From assembly GCA_024644945.1 (NCBI GenBank), contig JAHEGU010000001.1:217937-281936 (forward strand): DNA of 64,000 bases. Direction: 5' to 3'. The translations under genes were made by a program, and so were the position numbers. Positions 3,008 to 64,000 of this stretch are shown here, one piece after another. Position 1 is the first letter of the stretch, and every line of letters starts with the position of its first letter. Source of the DNA: Gammaproteobacteria bacterium (lineage in GTDB: Bacteria; Pseudomonadota; Gammaproteobacteria; Arenicellales; Poriferihabitantaceae). Under the pieces are notes generated by a model that was not told the origin of the DNA, ran no database searches, and worked only from the letters and a program-made list of their open reading frames with translations.

Positions 3008-3374
3008 CAGGGTCTTCTATTGCGATCGGTTTCAGGACGCGGGAATATAGCAAAGGTCGCACGGCAAGAGTGGATGCATCTCTATATTTCCTGAGTTCTA
3101 TGCGCAACGGGCCTGATTACGCTGGGGTTCAATGAAGTGATCTGCTACTATCCCGTTTGGAGGTCGGTTTACCGTGGTTGGGTATTTTCCAGGCTAGTGC
3201 CGCAAAACTGCAGGAAATATCTTAAGCTAACGGTAAGCACAATCCAGTTCGTCGAATTCGAATGCGTCATCGCTGTATTAAGTATTCTGTGAAAAACTAC
3301 CTGAGGTATCCAAATACCAACGGTATTGGGTATGATCGGAACATGCATAGATTGCTGTCAAAATAAACTGGGAC

Positions 3375-4367
3375 ATGGGGATTTTTAATAAAAAGCCGCT
3401 GAACCACCCTCACCAGAATGAGGCTGCGAACGCGGAAAAGGAAGAAGATACACGACGCTATCCGATACTAGCCGGGGAAAGCATAGAGAATTACCTGGTC
3501 GAGGGGGTAATCGGCGGCGGGGGTTTCAGTATCGTTTACCGAGCGTTCGATGCCACCCTAGGAGAGAGCGTAGTACTCAAGGAGTATTTCCCCAACCTTC
3601 TGGCAATTCGGGGTGAGGGCAACGCAATTAAACCGATTAGTCCGAAGAAAAAATCTGCATTTGATGTGGGCATGCAGCAGTTTTTTGCCGAAGCGCATGC
3701 ACTATCGAAGGTCTCACATCCCCATGTGATCAATATCATTAATGTGTTTCGCAGTAACAATACCGCTTATATGGTGTCAAAGCTGCAACCAGGGAGAGAT
3801 TTAAGGTGGATGATCAAACGCTGTCAGGGTGATCTTGATCAGAATTTTATTCAAAAAGTAATGCCGCCGGTTATTTCAGGTGTGGATATGCTGCATGAGA
3901 GCGGCATACTGCATCTCGATATTAAACCCGCAAATATTCTATTGCGCGCCGCGGGCGGGCCATTGTTGCTGGATTTTGGAGCCAGCAAGACAATGAGTCG
4001 GCAGGAGAGGTTCAGTAGTTTCCAGACCTTGACCCCGGGATTTGCACCACCGGAGCAGCATCACAAACGTGAACTTGGGCCAGGTTCGGATATCTATGCC
4101 CTGGGCGCCACTATTTACGCCTGCGTCACCGGTAAGCCGCCCCCCACGTCCCTCAAACGCGAACAAAAGGAAAACGAACTGAAACTAAAGGGGGCGGATA
4201 AAAACGTTTCTCTGTCGGTGATCGAGGCACTTAAATGGGCCCTGGAACTCGACATCGCGGACCGACCCCAAACCATTTCTGAATTTGCTAATCTGTTGCT
4301 CCAGGACTCCGAATGGGGGTCGTTTGATGCTTTTCAGGATCAGCTGCTCGAAGAATTAAACTCCTGA
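3375..4367 (+). CDS. Hanks-type serine/threonine protein kinase, catalytic domain only
   Basis: Gly-loop GGGGFSIVY, VVLKEY (VAIK Lys), HLDIKPANILL catalytic loop, DFGASK (DFG), TPGFAPPEQ (APE-like), DIYALGAT. There are no TM or sensor domains. 330 aa. Confidence 0.85.
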   Translation: MGIFNKKPLNHPHQNEAANAEKEEDTRRYPILAGESIENYLVEGVIGGGGFSIVYRAFDATLGESVVLKEYFPNLLAIRGEGNAIKPISPKKKSAFDVGMQQFFAEAHALSKVSHPHVINIINVFRSNNTAYMVSKLQPGRDLRWMIKRCQGDLDQNFIQKVMPPVISGVDMLHESGILHLDIKPANILLRAAGGPLLLDFGASKTMSRQERFSSFQTLTPGFAPPEQHHKRELGPGSDIYALGATIYACVTGKPPPTSLKREQKENELKLKGADKNVSLSVIEALKWALELDIADRPQTISEFANLLLQDSEWGSFDAFQDQLLEELNS

Positions 4368-19619: not shown

Positions 19620-20267
19620 ATGACAAAAAACAGACTTGAGGACAAGCTGGATGCGGTATATCAATCGGGTGGAGATCGTGATAAGCAGGATGCGGTCTAT
19701 GACCAGTGGGCAAGGAATTATGACCAGGATCTTTGGGCTTCGGGTAATCCCTATATCGCCTTAATGACAGGGATGGCCGGGCGCCATATTCATGACAAGA
19801 CGGCGAAGATACTGGACGCGGGTTGCGGCACAGGCAATATGGCACAGCTATTGGTCGCGATCGGCTATAAAAACATAGTGGGCATTGACGCTTCCGAAGG
19901 AATGCTGGCGGTGGCCCGATCCAAGGGGGTCTATCAGGAAGTGCATCAGCTGTTGCTCGAAGGAAAAATCAACTTGTCATCCAATAGTTTTGACGCGGTG
20001 ACAGCGGCCGGGGTATTGACTCACGGCCACGCCGGCCCAGACTCTCTGGACGGACTGTTGACCTTAGCAAAGCCAGGTGCACCGATTATTTTCTCAATCT
20101 CAAAGCCCGCTATGGAAGAGTGTGGATACGCCGATAAGATCGAGGCCCTTGAAAAATCGGGTCAATGGCGGCTCGCGGATCAAAGTGATCAGTTTCGTAC
20201 TTATCCGTTTTCTGATCAATATGCCGATCTGCGACATTGGATCTATGTTTTTCGCAAATCGGATTAA
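19620..20267 (+). CDS. class I SAM-dependent methyltransferase
   Basis: Motif I ILDAGCGTGN. GGAGG Shine-Dalgarno 8 nt upstream of the ATG at 19620. The ORF-track start at 19557 is probably too long. Confidence 0.85.
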   Translation: MTKNRLEDKLDAVYQSGGDRDKQDAVYDQWARNYDQDLWASGNPYIALMTGMAGRHIHDKTAKILDAGCGTGNMAQLLVAIGYKNIVGIDASEGMLAVARSKGVYQEVHQLLLEGKINLSSNSFDAVTAAGVLTHGHAGPDSLDGLLTLAKPGAPIIFSISKPAMEECGYADKIEALEKSGQWRLADQSDQFRTYPFSDQYADLRHWIYVFRKSD

Positions 20268-47648: not shown

Positions 47649-47792
47649 AAACGACTGACAAGGGGAATATTGCGTGAAGTATAGCGCACCGTCGTTTTCG
47701 GTCAGGCAGCATGGAAGTCTCAATTCAGATCAAATATGCGATAGCGATTGGGTGACACGACTGAGACATATGCAACAATTTTTGACCACTTG

Positions 47793-47871
47793 TGACAATC
47801 ATTGTCAGCCGAATTCTTGCCTCCAAGGGGATAAAACTAAAAATTGTGAGCGCAGCTGATCAGAGTGATCA
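47793..47871. promoter_or_regulatory. two palindromic elements, candidate upstream activator sites for the sigma-54 promoter
   Basis: TGACAAT-C-ATTGTCA is a perfect 7-1-7 palindrome at 47793-47807. TGATCA-GAG-TGATCA lies at 47857-47871. They sit about 160 and about 90 bp upstream of the -24 element and are followed by a very AT-rich stretch (47875-47940) that could bend DNA. Confidence 0.3.
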
Positions 47872-47952
47872 ATAATTACAAATAAATATAAACTAATAAA
47901 AACAACAAGATACGGATATTTATCTAATTTTTTTAAACTGAATGGGAAAGGT

Positions 47953-47967
47953 TGGCACAGCCTTTGC
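47953..47967 (+). promoter_or_regulatory. sigma-54 (RpoN) -24/-12 promoter
   Basis: TGGCACAGCCTTTGC is an exact match to TGGCAC-N5-TTGC (GG-N10-GC spacing). It is intergenic and points away from the divergent MoxR operon. Confidence 0.6.
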
Positions 47968-47978
47968 TTTAAACAAAT

Positions 47979-48101
47979 CAGACAGCAATGCTGGGGGTTG
48001 AGACCAGTACCGAACCATATGTAGAGGTGAAAGTGGTACGTTAGTGGATCGACTCAATACCAGCGGATTAGTCCGCTGGTATTGAGCGATCCCTTTTTTT
48101 T
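47979..48101 (+). ncRNA. candidate sigma-54-dependent small RNA or terminated leader, about 120 nt
   Basis: Bounded by the predicted start about 12 nt after the -12 GC and by a strong intrinsic terminator. The only internal ORF is 11 codons. I recognise no known RNA family. Confidence 0.4.
48047..48101 (+). terminator. rho-independent terminator
   Basis: Perfect 15-bp stem CTCAATACCAGCGGA / TCCGCTGGTATTGAG (48053-48067 / 48072-48086) with loop TTAG. It extends by GATCG/CGATC with one bulge and is followed by CCC plus T8 (48094-48101). There is no T-run on the opposite strand. Confidence 0.8.
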
Positions 48102-48197
48102 CAGCAGGTGGGACCTGGGGGGGTCCCGTTGAATACCGGCTGGATCCCGAAAGGCATTTAGGATCGTCCGTGATGACGATCAACAGGAGACAAAACG

Positions 48198-48557
48198 ATG
48201 CATACTGAAATTAGTCAACGGGACCTGGATAGTCTGGCAGAGCTTTCGAGCAAGATGGTGCACAGTGTCGATTTTTCTGAGAACGAGAATTTCGACTCAG
48301 ACCGAATTACATTTCTTCACTTACTCAGTCAACTTGATACCCGCTACGGTAACCACGAGCTCCTGTTTGACGCGCGCAGTATCGTTTTATGCAAACCTTT
48401 CCGTAAACTCGATCTTTACACACTCACCAGAGACCTTGTTCGAATGGCCCGAACTGGTAATACAGACTTAACACTTCAATCAACAGACGAAATTGTGCCT
48501 GTCATTCCTGCAACGATGGTATCGACTGTTCAACCTGCCAACGTTCTGGCTTGCTGA
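48198..48557 (+). CDS. hypothetical protein
   Basis: 119 aa with an AGGAG Shine-Dalgarno 8 nt upstream. No recognisable motifs. The leader contains hairpins GGGACC/GGTCCC (48110-48127) and GATCGTC/GACGATC (48162-48181). Confidence 0.5.
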   Translation: MHTEISQRDLDSLAELSSKMVHSVDFSENENFDSDRITFLHLLSQLDTRYGNHELLFDARSIVLCKPFRKLDLYTLTRDLVRMARTGNTDLTLQSTDEIVPVIPATMVSTVQPANVLAC

Positions 48558-48711
48558 AAGCAAAGTCACTCCCAATAAATTGACCTATCAGCGTCATCCT
48601 GACGTGTTACGCAGTCGCTTTTTGCGATAGTTTCAAGAAATTTCCCAGCTTTACAAAGCAGTTCCACGGTTTGTGGTATATACCATATGGAGAACAGCAT
48701 AGAATACTTGC

Positions 48712-50339: not shown

Positions 50340-50900
50340 ATGAAACTCTACGGAAGTTATACCTCGCCCTTCGTTCGACATTGCCGGATAGCCCTGCTGC
50401 AAAACGGATTTGATTTCGATTTTGTCGAAGCCGATTATGCTGTGAGCGCTGAAAAATCGCCAACCAGCAAAGTACCGTTCTTTGAAGATGGCGATTTGAC
50501 CTTGACTGATTCGAGCTCAATACTCAAATATGTCAGGGAAAAAGCCGGGCAAAATTTCCTGCCTGACATTCAAGACTATGAAATGTTTTGCATGGCAAAT
50601 ACTTTGCTGGACAGCGCGATTAACCTTTTTCTGTTGGAAAATGACGGGGTAACTCCGGATCAGGTCGGATATCTGGCAAGACAAAAAGAACGCGTTAATT
50701 CTGGACTGGGTGAGCTCAATCGACGCTTCGACCCGGCCGAAGGAATAGCGAAAGATAGCGCGCTTCGATGTGTTTGCTTTATAGACTGGGCGCTGTTTCG
50801 CAAACGAATCGACATAGGTGGTTGTGAGAACCTGGCTGGACTGCTAACGGTCGCTAATGAAGAGAGAGAGTTTGTCGCCACGGCGCCGCCGGGAAGGTAG
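50340..50900 (+). CDS. glutathione S-transferase family protein
   Basis: MKLYGSYTSPFVRHCRIAL thioredoxin-like N-domain, KVPFFEDGD, DSSSILKYV. Confidence 0.85.
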   Translation: MKLYGSYTSPFVRHCRIALLQNGFDFDFVEADYAVSAEKSPTSKVPFFEDGDLTLTDSSSILKYVREKAGQNFLPDIQDYEMFCMANTLLDSAINLFLLENDGVTPDQVGYLARQKERVNSGLGELNRRFDPAEGIAKDSALRCVCFIDWALFRKRIDIGGCENLAGLLTVANEEREFVATAPPGR

Positions 50901-63833: not shown

Positions 63834-64000
63834 GTGAATTTTACAAAACGAAACTTTCTTAGGTTGAGCCTGATTATGGCTGGTGGATCATGGAGCCTGG
63901 CTGGATGTGGAGGGGGTGGTTCAGTTTCAGGTAGTGGAAGTGGGATCGTAGCGACAGGAAAGGCTCTTATCTCTGGCAACGTCGTTGCTAATAATGTGAC
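63834..64000 (+). CDS. putative lipoprotein, N-terminal fragment (continues beyond window)
   Basis: Manual translation from the GTG at 63834 gives VNFTKRNFLRLSLIMAGGSWSLAGCGGGGSVSGSGSG... It has a KR n-region, hydrophobic core, LAGC lipobox and a Gly/Ser linker. It is open to the window end. Confidence 0.5.
   Translation, partial: MNFTKRNFLRLSLIMAGGSWSLAGCGGGGSVSGSGSGIVATGKALISGNVVANNV

Follow-up and report, generated by a model that had tools for sequence, protein, structure and literature searches.

The locus described here lies in a 64-kb stretch of DNA, referred to as the window, from a member of the Arenicellales, a widespread marine gammaproteobacterial order that is known mainly from metagenome-assembled genomes. 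All positions are those of the window. A small protein gene is preceded in this region by a conserved, structured segment with a putative enhancer-dependent promoter, and the following features were recognized.

47752-47767, no strand assigned: distal UAS-like site TGACACGACTGAGACA, with two mismatches in the window, about 40 bp 5' of the main palindrome
47779-47792: conserved sequence TTTTTGACCACTTG, immediately 5' of the main palindrome
47793-47807, no strand assigned: main upstream activator (enhancer-like) palindrome TGACAATCATTGTCA, a conserved inverted repeat
47873-47945, no strand assigned: AT-rich spacer separating the UAS from the promoter
47900-47912: weak IHF-like site AAACAACAAGATA inside the AT-rich spacer, with two mismatches in the window copy
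47953-47968, plus strand: putative sigma-54 (-24/-12) promoter TGGCAC-AGCCT-TTGCT (TGGCACAGCCTTTGCT), identified by consensus match and conservation
47983-47993, plus strand: P1, a small hairpin, CAGC-(AAU)-GCUG
47990-48005, plus strand: G-run segment GCUGGGGGUUGAGACC
48007-48039, plus strand: P2, a hairpin, GUACCG-A-ACC / loop / GGU-GAAAG-UGGUAC
48025-48044, plus strand: near-invariant 20-mer AGGUGAAAGUGGUACGUUAG
48046-48092, plus strand: P3, a long terminator hairpin of 47 nt, GGATCGaCTCAATACCAGCGGA / TCCGCTGGTATTGAGCGATCC, identified by fold and conservation
48094-48101, plus strand: U8 tract ending the intrinsic terminator
48102-48131, plus strand: P4, a hairpin directly 3' of the U-tract, CAGC..GGGACC-UGGG-GGGUCCC..GUUG
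48162-48181, plus strand: P6, a hairpin 4 nt 5' of the Shine-Dalgarno (SD) sequence, GAUCGUC-CGUGAU-GACGAUC
48186-48189, plus strand: SD sequence GGAG, 5' of the 119-aa gene
48198-48557, plus strand: gene for a small acidic protein of 119 aa, with four predicted helices and a disordered tail

Related loci were sought in several ways. An exact-block scan of GTDB genomes gave one match, an Arenicellales metagenome-assembled genome, and in JGI metagenomes a gapped two-block scan yielded one real match together with one chance match in a GC-rich coding region; further loci were collected via the neighbouring MoxR protein. The resulting set contains 10 distinct loci including the window, and L001 brings the total to 11.

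The promoter element has GG at -24 and GC at -12 with the exact spacing that characterizes enhancer-dependent sigma-54 promoters, and the predicted transcription start lies at about 47979. An earlier note on this DNA had already pointed to a -24/-12 element with exact spacing at this position, and the motif scan bears this out, TGGCACAGCCTTTGCT being an exact consensus match and the only one to TGGCAC-N5-TTGCW without mismatches in the 64-kb window. When one mismatch is allowed, four matches are found in the window versus three expected; as this count is close to expectation, the motif is weak evidence by itself and the weight rests on its conservation. The blocks TGGCAC and TTGC are unchanged in nine of the 10 distinct loci (L012 has TGGCAT), and the spacer between them is 5 nt long throughout, while its sequence is free to vary (AGCCT, GGCAC, AGCAG, GTCTG, GGATG, GCTAG and AGTTG). 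Loss of the promoter or the hairpin in relatives had earlier been named as a possible refutation, and both of them, as well as the UAS, are present in ten related loci. A six-frame search of the 64-kb window for the GAFTGA, Walker A and ESELFGH motifs detected no enhancer-binding protein, which is consistent with what the earlier note had stated, and the RpoN box was absent in a six-frame motif search for rpoN in the same 64 kb. The MoxR protein was considered as the activator and rejected, as it gives only faint AAA+ cross-matches to Sigma54_activat and contains neither a GAFTGA motif nor a DNA-binding domain.

The main palindrome, TGACAATCATTGTCA, is found once in the window where 0.08 occurrences are expected, and its center lies at about -179 (about 178 bp upstream) relative to the predicted start at 47979. 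An exact TGACA-N5-TGTCA repeat is present in all 11 loci (10 distinct plus L001), 165-176 bp 5' of the -12 GC, and its central base flips between loci (ATCAT/ATGAT) with the symmetry preserved. L005 and L009 have a perfect TGACA-N6-TGTCA at the distal site, which is centered at about -219 from the predicted start, and forms with two mismatches are present there in the window, L001, L006 and L007. Two upstream palindromes had been proposed as enhancers; the TGACA palindrome proved to be unique and conserved, whereas TGATCA-GAG-TGATCA (47857-47871), in which a self-palindromic hexamer is directly repeated, is not conserved and was rejected as a second enhancer, being lost even in the closest relative (L007: GGTCAGAGCGCGCA). 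The AT-rich tract reported between the palindromes and the promoter recurs in all of the loci, with an AT fraction of 0.67-0.82. Within it, a WATCAA-N4-TTR sequence with one mismatch is fixed at -68 from the -12 GC in L003, L005, L006 and L010. The locus displays the arrangement expected of a UAS, viz. an inverted repeat some 100-200 bp 5' of the promoter that is frequently separated from it by an IHF site; in the window the IHF-like site is only weak. The spacer and this site would have a role in DNA bending.

The region downstream of the promoter is much more strongly conserved than its surroundings. A 155-nt RNA core shares 90-100% of its nucleotides with the window, in comparison to 68-75% for the MoxR, VWA, SLT_4 and 119-aa genes, and judged by these identities selection on the RNA is much stronger than on the neighboring genes. 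P1 is a weak helix of 4 bp, two of which show a compensatory change in distant members. The outer stem of P2 is kept by wobble changes in L014, but its 5' strand is unrecognizable in L012. The 20-mer AGGUGAAAGUGGUACGUUAG, which lies mostly inside P2 and not in a single-stranded stretch, is identical in nine of the 10 distinct loci, differs in L012 by a single A-to-G change near its 3' end, and is present only once in each locus and only once in the whole window; similarly, the CUGGGGG of the G-run is kept in nine of the 10 loci, with UUGGGGG in L012. In a structural alignment fitted to the model and comprising 10 distinct sequences from one order (Arenicellales), 98.3% of the cells are paired and six pairs show compensatory changes, values that none of 500 shuffles reached. 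Covariation in the hairpins of relatives had been suggested as a check, and compensatory changes were indeed found in P3, P4 and P6.

The statement that the longest ORF of this interval has 11 codons was incorrect, as an ATG ORF of 18 codons is present at 47988-48044, but the underlying claim that no credible ORF exists there holds, no ORF being conserved in the interval. Of the nine other distinct loci, six lack the ATG of this 18-codon ORF. A 13-nt insertion in L003 breaks its frame and also that of an 87-aa minus-strand ORF (47920-48183), and both ORFs were rejected as conserved genes. As the insertion sits in the apical loop of P2, the ATG is not conserved, and pairing is maintained by compensatory changes, the interval is best read as encoding an RNA rather than a protein.

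P3 contains a perfect core of 15 bp, extends to 21 bp with one bulge, and has a dG of -36.8 kcal/mol; hairpin and U-tract together span 48046-48101. The earlier description of a perfect 15-bp hairpin, extendable to about 20 bp and followed by T8 on the plus strand only, therefore agrees closely with this analysis, in which no T-run follows the hairpin on the minus strand. A stable, G+C-containing hairpin with an adjoining U-tract on the transcribed strand is what defines an intrinsic terminator, and the RNA ending here is predicted to be about 122 nt long; a predicted transcript of 124 nt folds at -51.7 kcal/mol (z = -6.85 versus shuffles). An automated terminator scan missed the hairpin at 48046-48092, presumably owing to its bulged long stem. 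Each of the 10 distinct loci retains the hairpin by way of compensatory changes: the upper stem keeps its sequence, the lower stem in L019 is swapped for another complementary sequence (CAGGCCCGG/CCGGGCCUG), and apical pairs are exchanged in L014 and L012. A U7-U8 tract is present in eight of the 10 (the window clade and L019) and absent in L014 and L012, where neither a U-tract nor any other terminator was found between P3 and the ORF.

Alternative pairings of P3 were also considered. In folds of the nascent transcript, the 5' arm of P3 is a possible partner of the G-run segment, and this candidate antiterminator is the minimum free energy structure in four of five terminator-bearing sequences and partial in L006. 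However, its z-scores against shuffles are -3.2 in the window, -0.6 in L005 and -0.1 in L019, significant in the window only, and as a general feature the antiterminator did not pass this control and is kept as a weak hypothesis. An anti-SD platform in the two loci lacking the U-tract, L014 and L012, was no better than shuffles (z of -0.9 and +1.6) and is rejected for now, and pairing of the 3' arm of P3 with 48127-48140 (inverted repeat I4), whose partner is not conserved elsewhere, was judged to be due to chance.

In each of the 10 distinct loci the RNA is followed, at a distance of 97-150 nt, by a homologue of the 119-aa gene, so that in every RNA-bearing member it occupies the 5' UTR of one gene family, as a leader should. 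A related lineage without the 119-aa gene is also without the RNA, and no RNA away from this gene was seen in the GTDB and JGI block scans or in a covariance-model search of the loci. In view of this strict co-occurrence within the lineage, the word "orphan" under which the element was earlier described is misleading. Conserved structure is also not confined to the part preceding the terminator. The covarying hairpins P4 and P6 occupy the stretch from the U-tract to the SD sequence; the sequence of P4 is kept across the close clade, with an A-U to G-C compensatory change in L005 and L009, and three of the seven pairs of P6 show compensatory double changes across loci. A promoter scan of 48100-48197 found no sigma-70-like promoter. 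As L014 and L012 have no U-tract, the RNA would run straight into the mRNA in these two distant lineages.

The 119-aa protein belongs to a small, unannotated family of about 30 clusters at 50% identity, and no relatives were found in Pfam, NCBIfam or the PDB, including by a PDB sequence profile. Its AlphaFold2 model (pLDDT 68) has four helices, and both Foldseek comparison of this model with the PDB and a search of 1.8 billion representatives with a profile yielded only generic four-helix bundles, viz. FliS, Csm2 and the QseE sensor, with E>0.3. The protein contains a conserved basic helix (KPFRKLDLYTxTRxLxRxAR). In a distant subfamily (30% identity) both the RNA and the promoter are missing, which indicates that the 119-aa gene does not need the leader.

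The earlier note had recognized no RNA family in this sequence, and the searches agree. With Rfam, no matches were obtained at the gathering score in the whole window or at E<=1 for three distant members, and at E<=10 the region 47700-48300 gave only chance matches far below threshold, e.g. miRNA-hairpin lookalikes on P3. The Rfam riboswitch, T-box and leader models did not match the RNA, and a T-box-like reading of GUGGUAC was rejected, there being no match to the T-box model. The covariance model R1 detects a single copy in every locus, the window included, its other matches being only the reverse strand of the palindromic P3. Based upon these searches, the RNA is previously undescribed and belongs to no described family, and as far as the scans could see it is restricted to the Arenicellales.

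The earlier note had left two alternatives, an RpoN-controlled sRNA and a terminating leader of the 119-aa gene; both find support here and the evidence leans to the leader. We consider it somewhat probable (about 0.55), from sequence and comparative evidence, that the element is a structured 5' leader under a sigma-54, enhancer-dependent promoter, with an internal terminator gating the 119-aa gene. A leader rather than an orphan RNA is favored because of the linkage to the gene and their joint absence, the hairpins P4 and P6, the lack of a sigma-70-like promoter, and the loss of the U-tract in two lineages. The promoter, the RNA and the 119-aa gene would form one sigma-54 transcription unit, in which the palindrome(s) TGACA-N5-TGTCA, some 180-220 bp upstream, would be bound by an enhancer-binding protein, DNA looping would be permitted by the AT-rich, IHF-like spacer, and RNA polymerase with sigma-54 at TGGCAC-N5-TTGC would initiate near 47979. 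The first 120 nt or so would fold into the conserved three-helix RNA (P1-P2-P3) that constitutes the 5' leader of the gene. In the window clade, P3 and U8 would terminate most transcripts by default at about 48101, giving the RNA of about 122 nt as a by-product or a second product, and the 119-aa gene would be expressed through read-through only, the read-through RNA bearing P4-P6 up to the SD sequence. Transcription from this promoter presumably occurs and requires RpoN, and termination is probably conditional, and the near-invariant 20-mer and the G-run are the likely surface through which a ligand, a protein or a second RNA is sensed or bound. In addition, the terminated product may have a function in trans.

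The strongest competitor, possible but clearly the less probable, is a stand-alone, sigma-54-dependent, trans-acting sRNA of about 122 nt with a hairpin and U8 tail of the Hfq type, which would pair with mRNAs via the 20-mer and/or the G-run, the 119-aa gene being a mere syntenic neighbor served by leak-through or an unrecognized promoter. The very strong terminator, with U7-U8 in eight of the 10 distinct loci, is as this proposal predicts, and given its -36.8 kcal/mol and U8, read-through could be negligible and the short RNA the real product. The near-invariant 20-nt block and CUGGGGG also resemble sRNA seeds, and sigma-54-dependent sRNAs with a UAS and an IHF site are well established, viz. 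CrcZ (with CbrB and IHF) and NrsZ (with NtrC) (PMC8395346). However, L014 and L012 encode no discrete small-RNA end, so that a 3' end of its own is not common to all members; covarying structure extends beyond the terminator to the SD sequence; no promoter was found for the 119-aa gene, and the RNA is never met apart from it. In addition, the presumed seed is largely paired within P2, and a duplex search of the translation-initiation regions of the 53 genes of the window, a test of low power, revealed no target signal above shuffled seeds.

It is improbable, in our estimate, that the RNA and the 119-aa protein form a functional pair, in which the leader is autoregulated or the terminated RNA titrates or neutralizes the protein, with the terminator controlling the ratio of RNA to protein in the manner of type III toxin-antitoxin loci. 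Strict linkage under one promoter with a terminator in between recalls the gene order of such loci, ToxI-terminator-ToxN, and the conserved basic helix of the protein also speaks for such a pair, but the RNA has no tandem repeats, the predicted acidic four-helix bundle is unlike ToxN, AbiQ, CptN or any RNA-binding fold, the distant protein subfamily lives without the RNA, and nothing at the locus points to mobility or to a defence setting. Very doubtful is a translational attenuator in which the SD-like GAGGUGA and the three-codon ORF GUG-GUA-CGU-UAG (48033-48044) would allow ribosome occupancy to decide whether P3 forms. Although GAGGUGA, 3 nt, GUG and an in-frame UAG are present in nine of the 10 distinct loci and the ORF stops 2 nt before P3, every codon position is invariant, which indicates a constraint on the RNA and not on coding, UGG replaces the stop in L012, the consensus fold has both the SD-like sequence and GUG base-paired within P2, and the proposal is pattern-reading without independent support. 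Hardly credible is that no functional RNA exists, the conservation reflecting a protein-binding, replication or recombination site in DNA and the hairpin being an incidental palindrome, since nothing specific favors it, compensatory changes keep P3, P4 and P6 paired while their sequences shift, the T-run is strand-specific, and the -24/-12 spacing is fixed while the spacer varies.

Sigma-54 promoters are usually seen as tight all-or-none switches that are governed solely by the enhancer-binding protein. A conserved leader with a built-in terminator behind such a promoter would add a second layer of control, and the RNA would define a new family in the Arenicellales. As it is conserved far beyond the neighboring protein genes, it must contact something specific. 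A more speculative extension, which we hold only tentatively and think rather unlikely in its entirety, is that P1-P2-P3 represents a novel RNA sensor (an aptamer, riboswitch-like or protein-binding, centered on AGGUGAAAGUGGUACGUUAG and the G-run) that acts as an RNA-level checkpoint on a sigma-54/enhancer promoter, so that a small regulatory protein would be gated by two inputs, with platforms that differ between lineages (a terminator in most, none in L012 and L014) and with the 122-nt RNA also serving as a trans regulator. The element is compact and well delimited (about 120-220 nt plus the enhancer site of 15 bp). It could be transferred to a model host, where one could look for its activator and its effector and examine what the small protein does.

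Among known systems, CrcZ/CrcY of Pseudomonas (CbrB-RpoN-IHF) and NrsZ (NtrC-RpoN) resemble the locus in having a -24/-12 promoter, a UAS, an IHF-type bend and an intrinsic terminator (PMC8395346). In contrast to them, the window RNA shows no sequence or structure match, has no repeated A-rich Hfq-binding motifs, and would be a physical 5' part of an mRNA, with two lineages lacking the terminator. The CrcZ model scores 10 bits versus a gathering score of 95, and its alignment lies over the promoter of the window and not over the RNA; the TGACA-N5-TGTCA palindrome also differs from the CbrB site. Qrr1-5 of Vibrio (LuxO-sigma-54) and GlmY (GlrR-sigma-54) are similar in size (about 100-150 nt), in their enhancer-dependent sigma-54 promoter, and in a conserved core with a hairpin and U-tail. 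Unlike them, the window RNA has no Rfam match at any threshold tried, is single-copy, is restricted to the Arenicellales as far as scanned, and always precedes the same small gene in the same orientation. It belongs to none of the Qrr, GlmY/GlmZ, CrcZ/CrcY and NrsZ families, for which there are zero gathering-score matches in the window. The type III toxin-antitoxin systems (ToxIN, CptIN, TenpIN) share the order of promoter, RNA, intrinsic terminator and protein gene, in which the terminator would set the RNA:protein ratio; however, 47650-48200 contains no direct repeats, which sets the RNA apart from this type, the 119-aa protein is unrelated to the ToxN-family endoribonucleases, and the context is one of chromosomal housekeeping genes.

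Another comparable type is that of terminator-containing 5' leaders (riboswitches and attenuators) with a prematurely terminated product that can also act in trans, such as the SAM riboswitches SreA/SreB of Listeria and rnTrpL of Sinorhizobium. The window RNA differs from them in matching no known aptamer class and in that an exclusive terminator/antiterminator pairing has no statistical support outside the window, and we know of no characterized leader of this type under an enhancer-dependent sigma-54 promoter. With these leaders it shares a conserved core in the 5' UTR of one gene family, a terminator inside the leader, a variable 3' platform (the lower P3 stem and the U-tract, present or absent), and a discrete short RNA as the predicted by-product.

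The best-supported reading of the region preceding the gene for a 119-aa protein (48198-48557, plus strand) is a sigma-54-activated leader with an internal terminator that would gate this gene. The elements concerned are listed below, where P1, P2, P3, P4, and P6 are helices of the predicted RNA and its continuation.

47752-47767, no strand assigned: second enhancer-like site, about 40 bp farther upstream than the main one, degenerate in the window
47793-47807, no strand assigned: main enhancer palindrome TGACAATCATTGTCA, occurring once in the window (0.08 expected)
47953-47968, plus strand: sigma-54 promoter TGGCACAGCCTTTGCT, from sequence
47983-47993, plus strand: P1, from the consensus fold
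48007-48039, plus strand: P2, an interrupted hairpin, from the consensus fold
48046-48092, plus strand: P3, terminator hairpin GGATCGaCTCAATACCAGCGGA-TTAG-TCCGCTGGTATTGAGCGATCC, from sequence and fold
48094-48101, plus strand: T8 tract, 3' of the hairpin
48102-48131, plus strand: P4 (close clade), between the U-tract and the Shine-Dalgarno sequence (SD), one compensatory pair
48162-48181, plus strand: P6 (close clade), between the U-tract and the SD, three compensatory pairs

The sigma-54 promoter, which the earlier note had described as an exactly spaced -24/-12 element, is the only match with zero mismatches to TGGCAC-N5-TTGCW in the 64-kb window. As this pattern has four matches at one mismatch where about three are expected, the motif by itself is little proof; the three other one-mismatch matches (19840-19855, 50593-50608, and 63974-63989) are as numerous as chance would give, and that at 50593 falls within a GST gene. 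Among the related loci, TGGCAC and TTGC are constant except in L012 (TGGCAT), and the 5-nt spacer is constant in length and variable in sequence. Counting the customary distance from the -12 GC (47966-47967) places the predicted start at ~47979. The proposed upstream palindrome TGACAAT-C-ATTGTCA was likewise upheld: TGACA-N5-TGTCA is exact in 11/11 loci (the ten distinct ones and L001), 165-176 bp 5' of the -12 GC, and its middle base flips from locus to locus with the symmetry maintained. In L005 and L009 the second site reads TGACA-N6-TGTCA without a mismatch. The spacer between enhancer and promoter has an A+T content of 67-82%, and an IHF-like site with one mismatch lies at a constant spacer position in four loci, the copy in the window being weaker. 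The other palindrome suggested earlier, TGATCA-GAG-TGATCA (47857-47871), shows no conservation, not even in the closest relative. As judged from these comparisons, the promoter region is a conserved, putatively enhancer-dependent architecture. Neither rpoN nor an enhancer-binding protein gene is encoded within the 64-kb window, as had been noticed for the latter.

A search of 5.8 billion proteins gave very few close homologues of the 119-aa protein; their contigs have the same gene order as the window, and the nearest named relative is an Arenicellales MAG. More distant members (L010, L012, L014, which comes from a 3.07-Mb contig, and L019) were obtained via the neighboring MoxR protein. The element is carried by ten distinct loci in total, exact-block scans having added only one true member from GTDB genomes and one from JGI metagenomes, and within the reach of these scans it appears confined to the order Arenicellales. 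In the L016-L018 lineage the RNA is missing, as are the genes for the 119-aa protein, SLT_4, and patatin. In these contigs, whose MoxR is 65% identical, MoxR adjoins the GST gene over a 185-bp GC-rich spacer (3816-4000), and the gene block was lost or never present.

From the predicted start to ~30 nt beyond the terminator, all members of the close clade are 90-100% identical to the window, where the flanking MoxR, VWA, SLT_4, and 119-aa genes show 68-75% nucleotide identity. The region is not coding, in line with the absence of a credible ORF reported earlier, since L003 tolerates 13 inserted nucleotides in the P2 apical loop (~3255-3280; the loop sequence ATATGTAGA is locally duplicated in tandem) with every helix untouched, and the sole ATG in the RNA (47988) is missing from most loci. 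An 87-aa TTG-initiated ORF opposite the whole RNA (47920-48183, minus strand) is broken by this insertion and was rejected as a gene. The 20-mer AGGTGAAAGTGGTACGTT(A/G)G (48025-48044) is invariant in 10/10 loci apart from the A/G position, and the G-run reads CUGGGGG in nine of the ten and UUGGGGG in L012. P3 keeps its sequence in the upper stem; in L019 the lower stem is a different but still complementary sequence, and in L014 and L012 the apical pairs are swapped. In a nine-sequence alignment, few in number and fitted to the structural model, 98.3% of cells pair and six pairs show double compensatory changes; 0/500 shuffles and no slid register came near the observed pairing. Rfam yielded no matching family for the window or for the distant members at any of the thresholds applied, the earlier note likewise having recognized none, and a covariance model constructed for the element detects a single copy in each locus. 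The transcribed region is accordingly best described as a predicted conserved structured RNA.

The P3 hairpin has a perfect 15-bp core (21 bp counting one bulge) and a free energy of -36.8 kcal/mol, and the T-run is confined to the plus strand, as expected of the strong intrinsic terminator claimed earlier. For the predicted 124-nt transcript, the folding energy is -51.7 kcal/mol, with a z of -6.85 relative to dinucleotide shuffles. This extremely strong terminator, the retention of U7-U8 in 8/10 loci, including the distant L019, and the seed-like appearance of the invariant 20-mer would suit a stand-alone sRNA, the first of two alternatives originally offered, and sigma-54-dependent sRNAs with a UAS and an IHF site are well known (CrcZ and NrsZ; PMC8395346). 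However, every occurrence of the RNA is followed, 97-150 nt downstream, by a homologue of the 119-aa gene, and where the gene is absent so is the RNA; covarying conserved hairpins run unbroken from the U-tract to the SD (GGAG, 48186-48189); and no sigma-70-like site was found in a promoter scan of 48100-48197. Additionally, L014 and L012 keep P3 with neither a U-tract nor another terminator ahead of the ORF, so that the RNA there would be a plain 5' UTR. The earlier observation is thus confirmed and its either/or interpretation supported, with the evidence leaning toward the second alternative, a leader. The two are compatible, as a terminated leader can also be a functional RNA. A trans-target search of 53 window genes gave nothing exceeding shuffled seeds. 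In minimum-energy folds of the nascent RNA, base pairing between the G-run segment and the 5' arm of P3 is seen for the window, L003, L005, and L019 and is only partial for L006; compared with shuffled upstream sequence, this antiterminator pairing is better in the window only (z -3.2; L005 -0.6, L019 -0.1). An anti-SD role for the sequence replacing the U-tract in L014 and L012 was no better than shuffles.

Upstream and divergent are genes for a MoxR-type AAA+ ATPase and then a VWA/CoxE protein. The MoxR start is most likely ATG 47648 (291 aa, matching all homologues), not the longest-ORF TTG 47723. A minus-strand -10-like TATACT (GAGTATAGC on the plus strand; 47678-47690), conserved in all related loci including RNA-less ones, looks like the sigma-70 promoter of this operon. 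Downstream, the 119-aa ORF is followed by genes for an SLT_4 transglycosylase and a patatin-like lipase. An extended -10-like sequence, TGGTATATA (48674-48682), precedes the SLT_4 gene (48712) by 30 nt, so the transglycosylase may be transcribed from a promoter of its own and not belong to the sigma-54 unit.

The 119-aa protein matches no Pfam, NCBIfam, or PDB profile. Its family is small, with ~30 clusters (50% identity) in a set of 1.8 billion representatives; members measure 93-134 aa, the ~85 N-terminal residues forming a conserved helical part ahead of a tail that varies. The AlphaFold2 model (pLDDT 68) has four helices and a disordered tail, and Foldseek returned only generic four-helix bundles (E>0.3). 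Across the close clade the protein ends in an invariant N-x-L-A-C (48543-48557), Cys being the final residue, after a variable, predicted disordered tail of ~30 residues; this ending is absent from more distant family members. In L012, a called 248-aa gene (3192-3938, minus strand) spanning the promoter and RNA is an over-extension, the true homologue starting at an internal ATG (MYIRSMNQHD..., identical to P0134). A distant subfamily (30% identity; L020-L023) has an unrelated neighborhood, its gene being monocistronic, with Rieske oxygenase and alpha/beta hydrolase genes on either side, and its 430-bp upstream region contains neither a sigma-54 promoter nor the RNA; the leader would therefore be a lineage-specific addition to the gene.

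Conservation, structure, linkage to the gene, and the lack of an Rfam match are shown by the analysis; that the region is transcribed, that this needs RpoN, that read-through is conditional, and that an effector takes part are inferences in the following scheme. An enhancer-binding protein at TGACA-N5-TGTCA would switch on sigma-54 transcription, and the transcript would start with the highly constrained structured leader, whose third helix (P3) would in most lineages act as an intrinsic terminator limiting or gating expression of the small four-helix protein. The ~122-nt RNA thus released may have an activity of its own. The element would represent a new RNA family, Arenicellales-restricted as far as could be seen, of a general kind that is already known.
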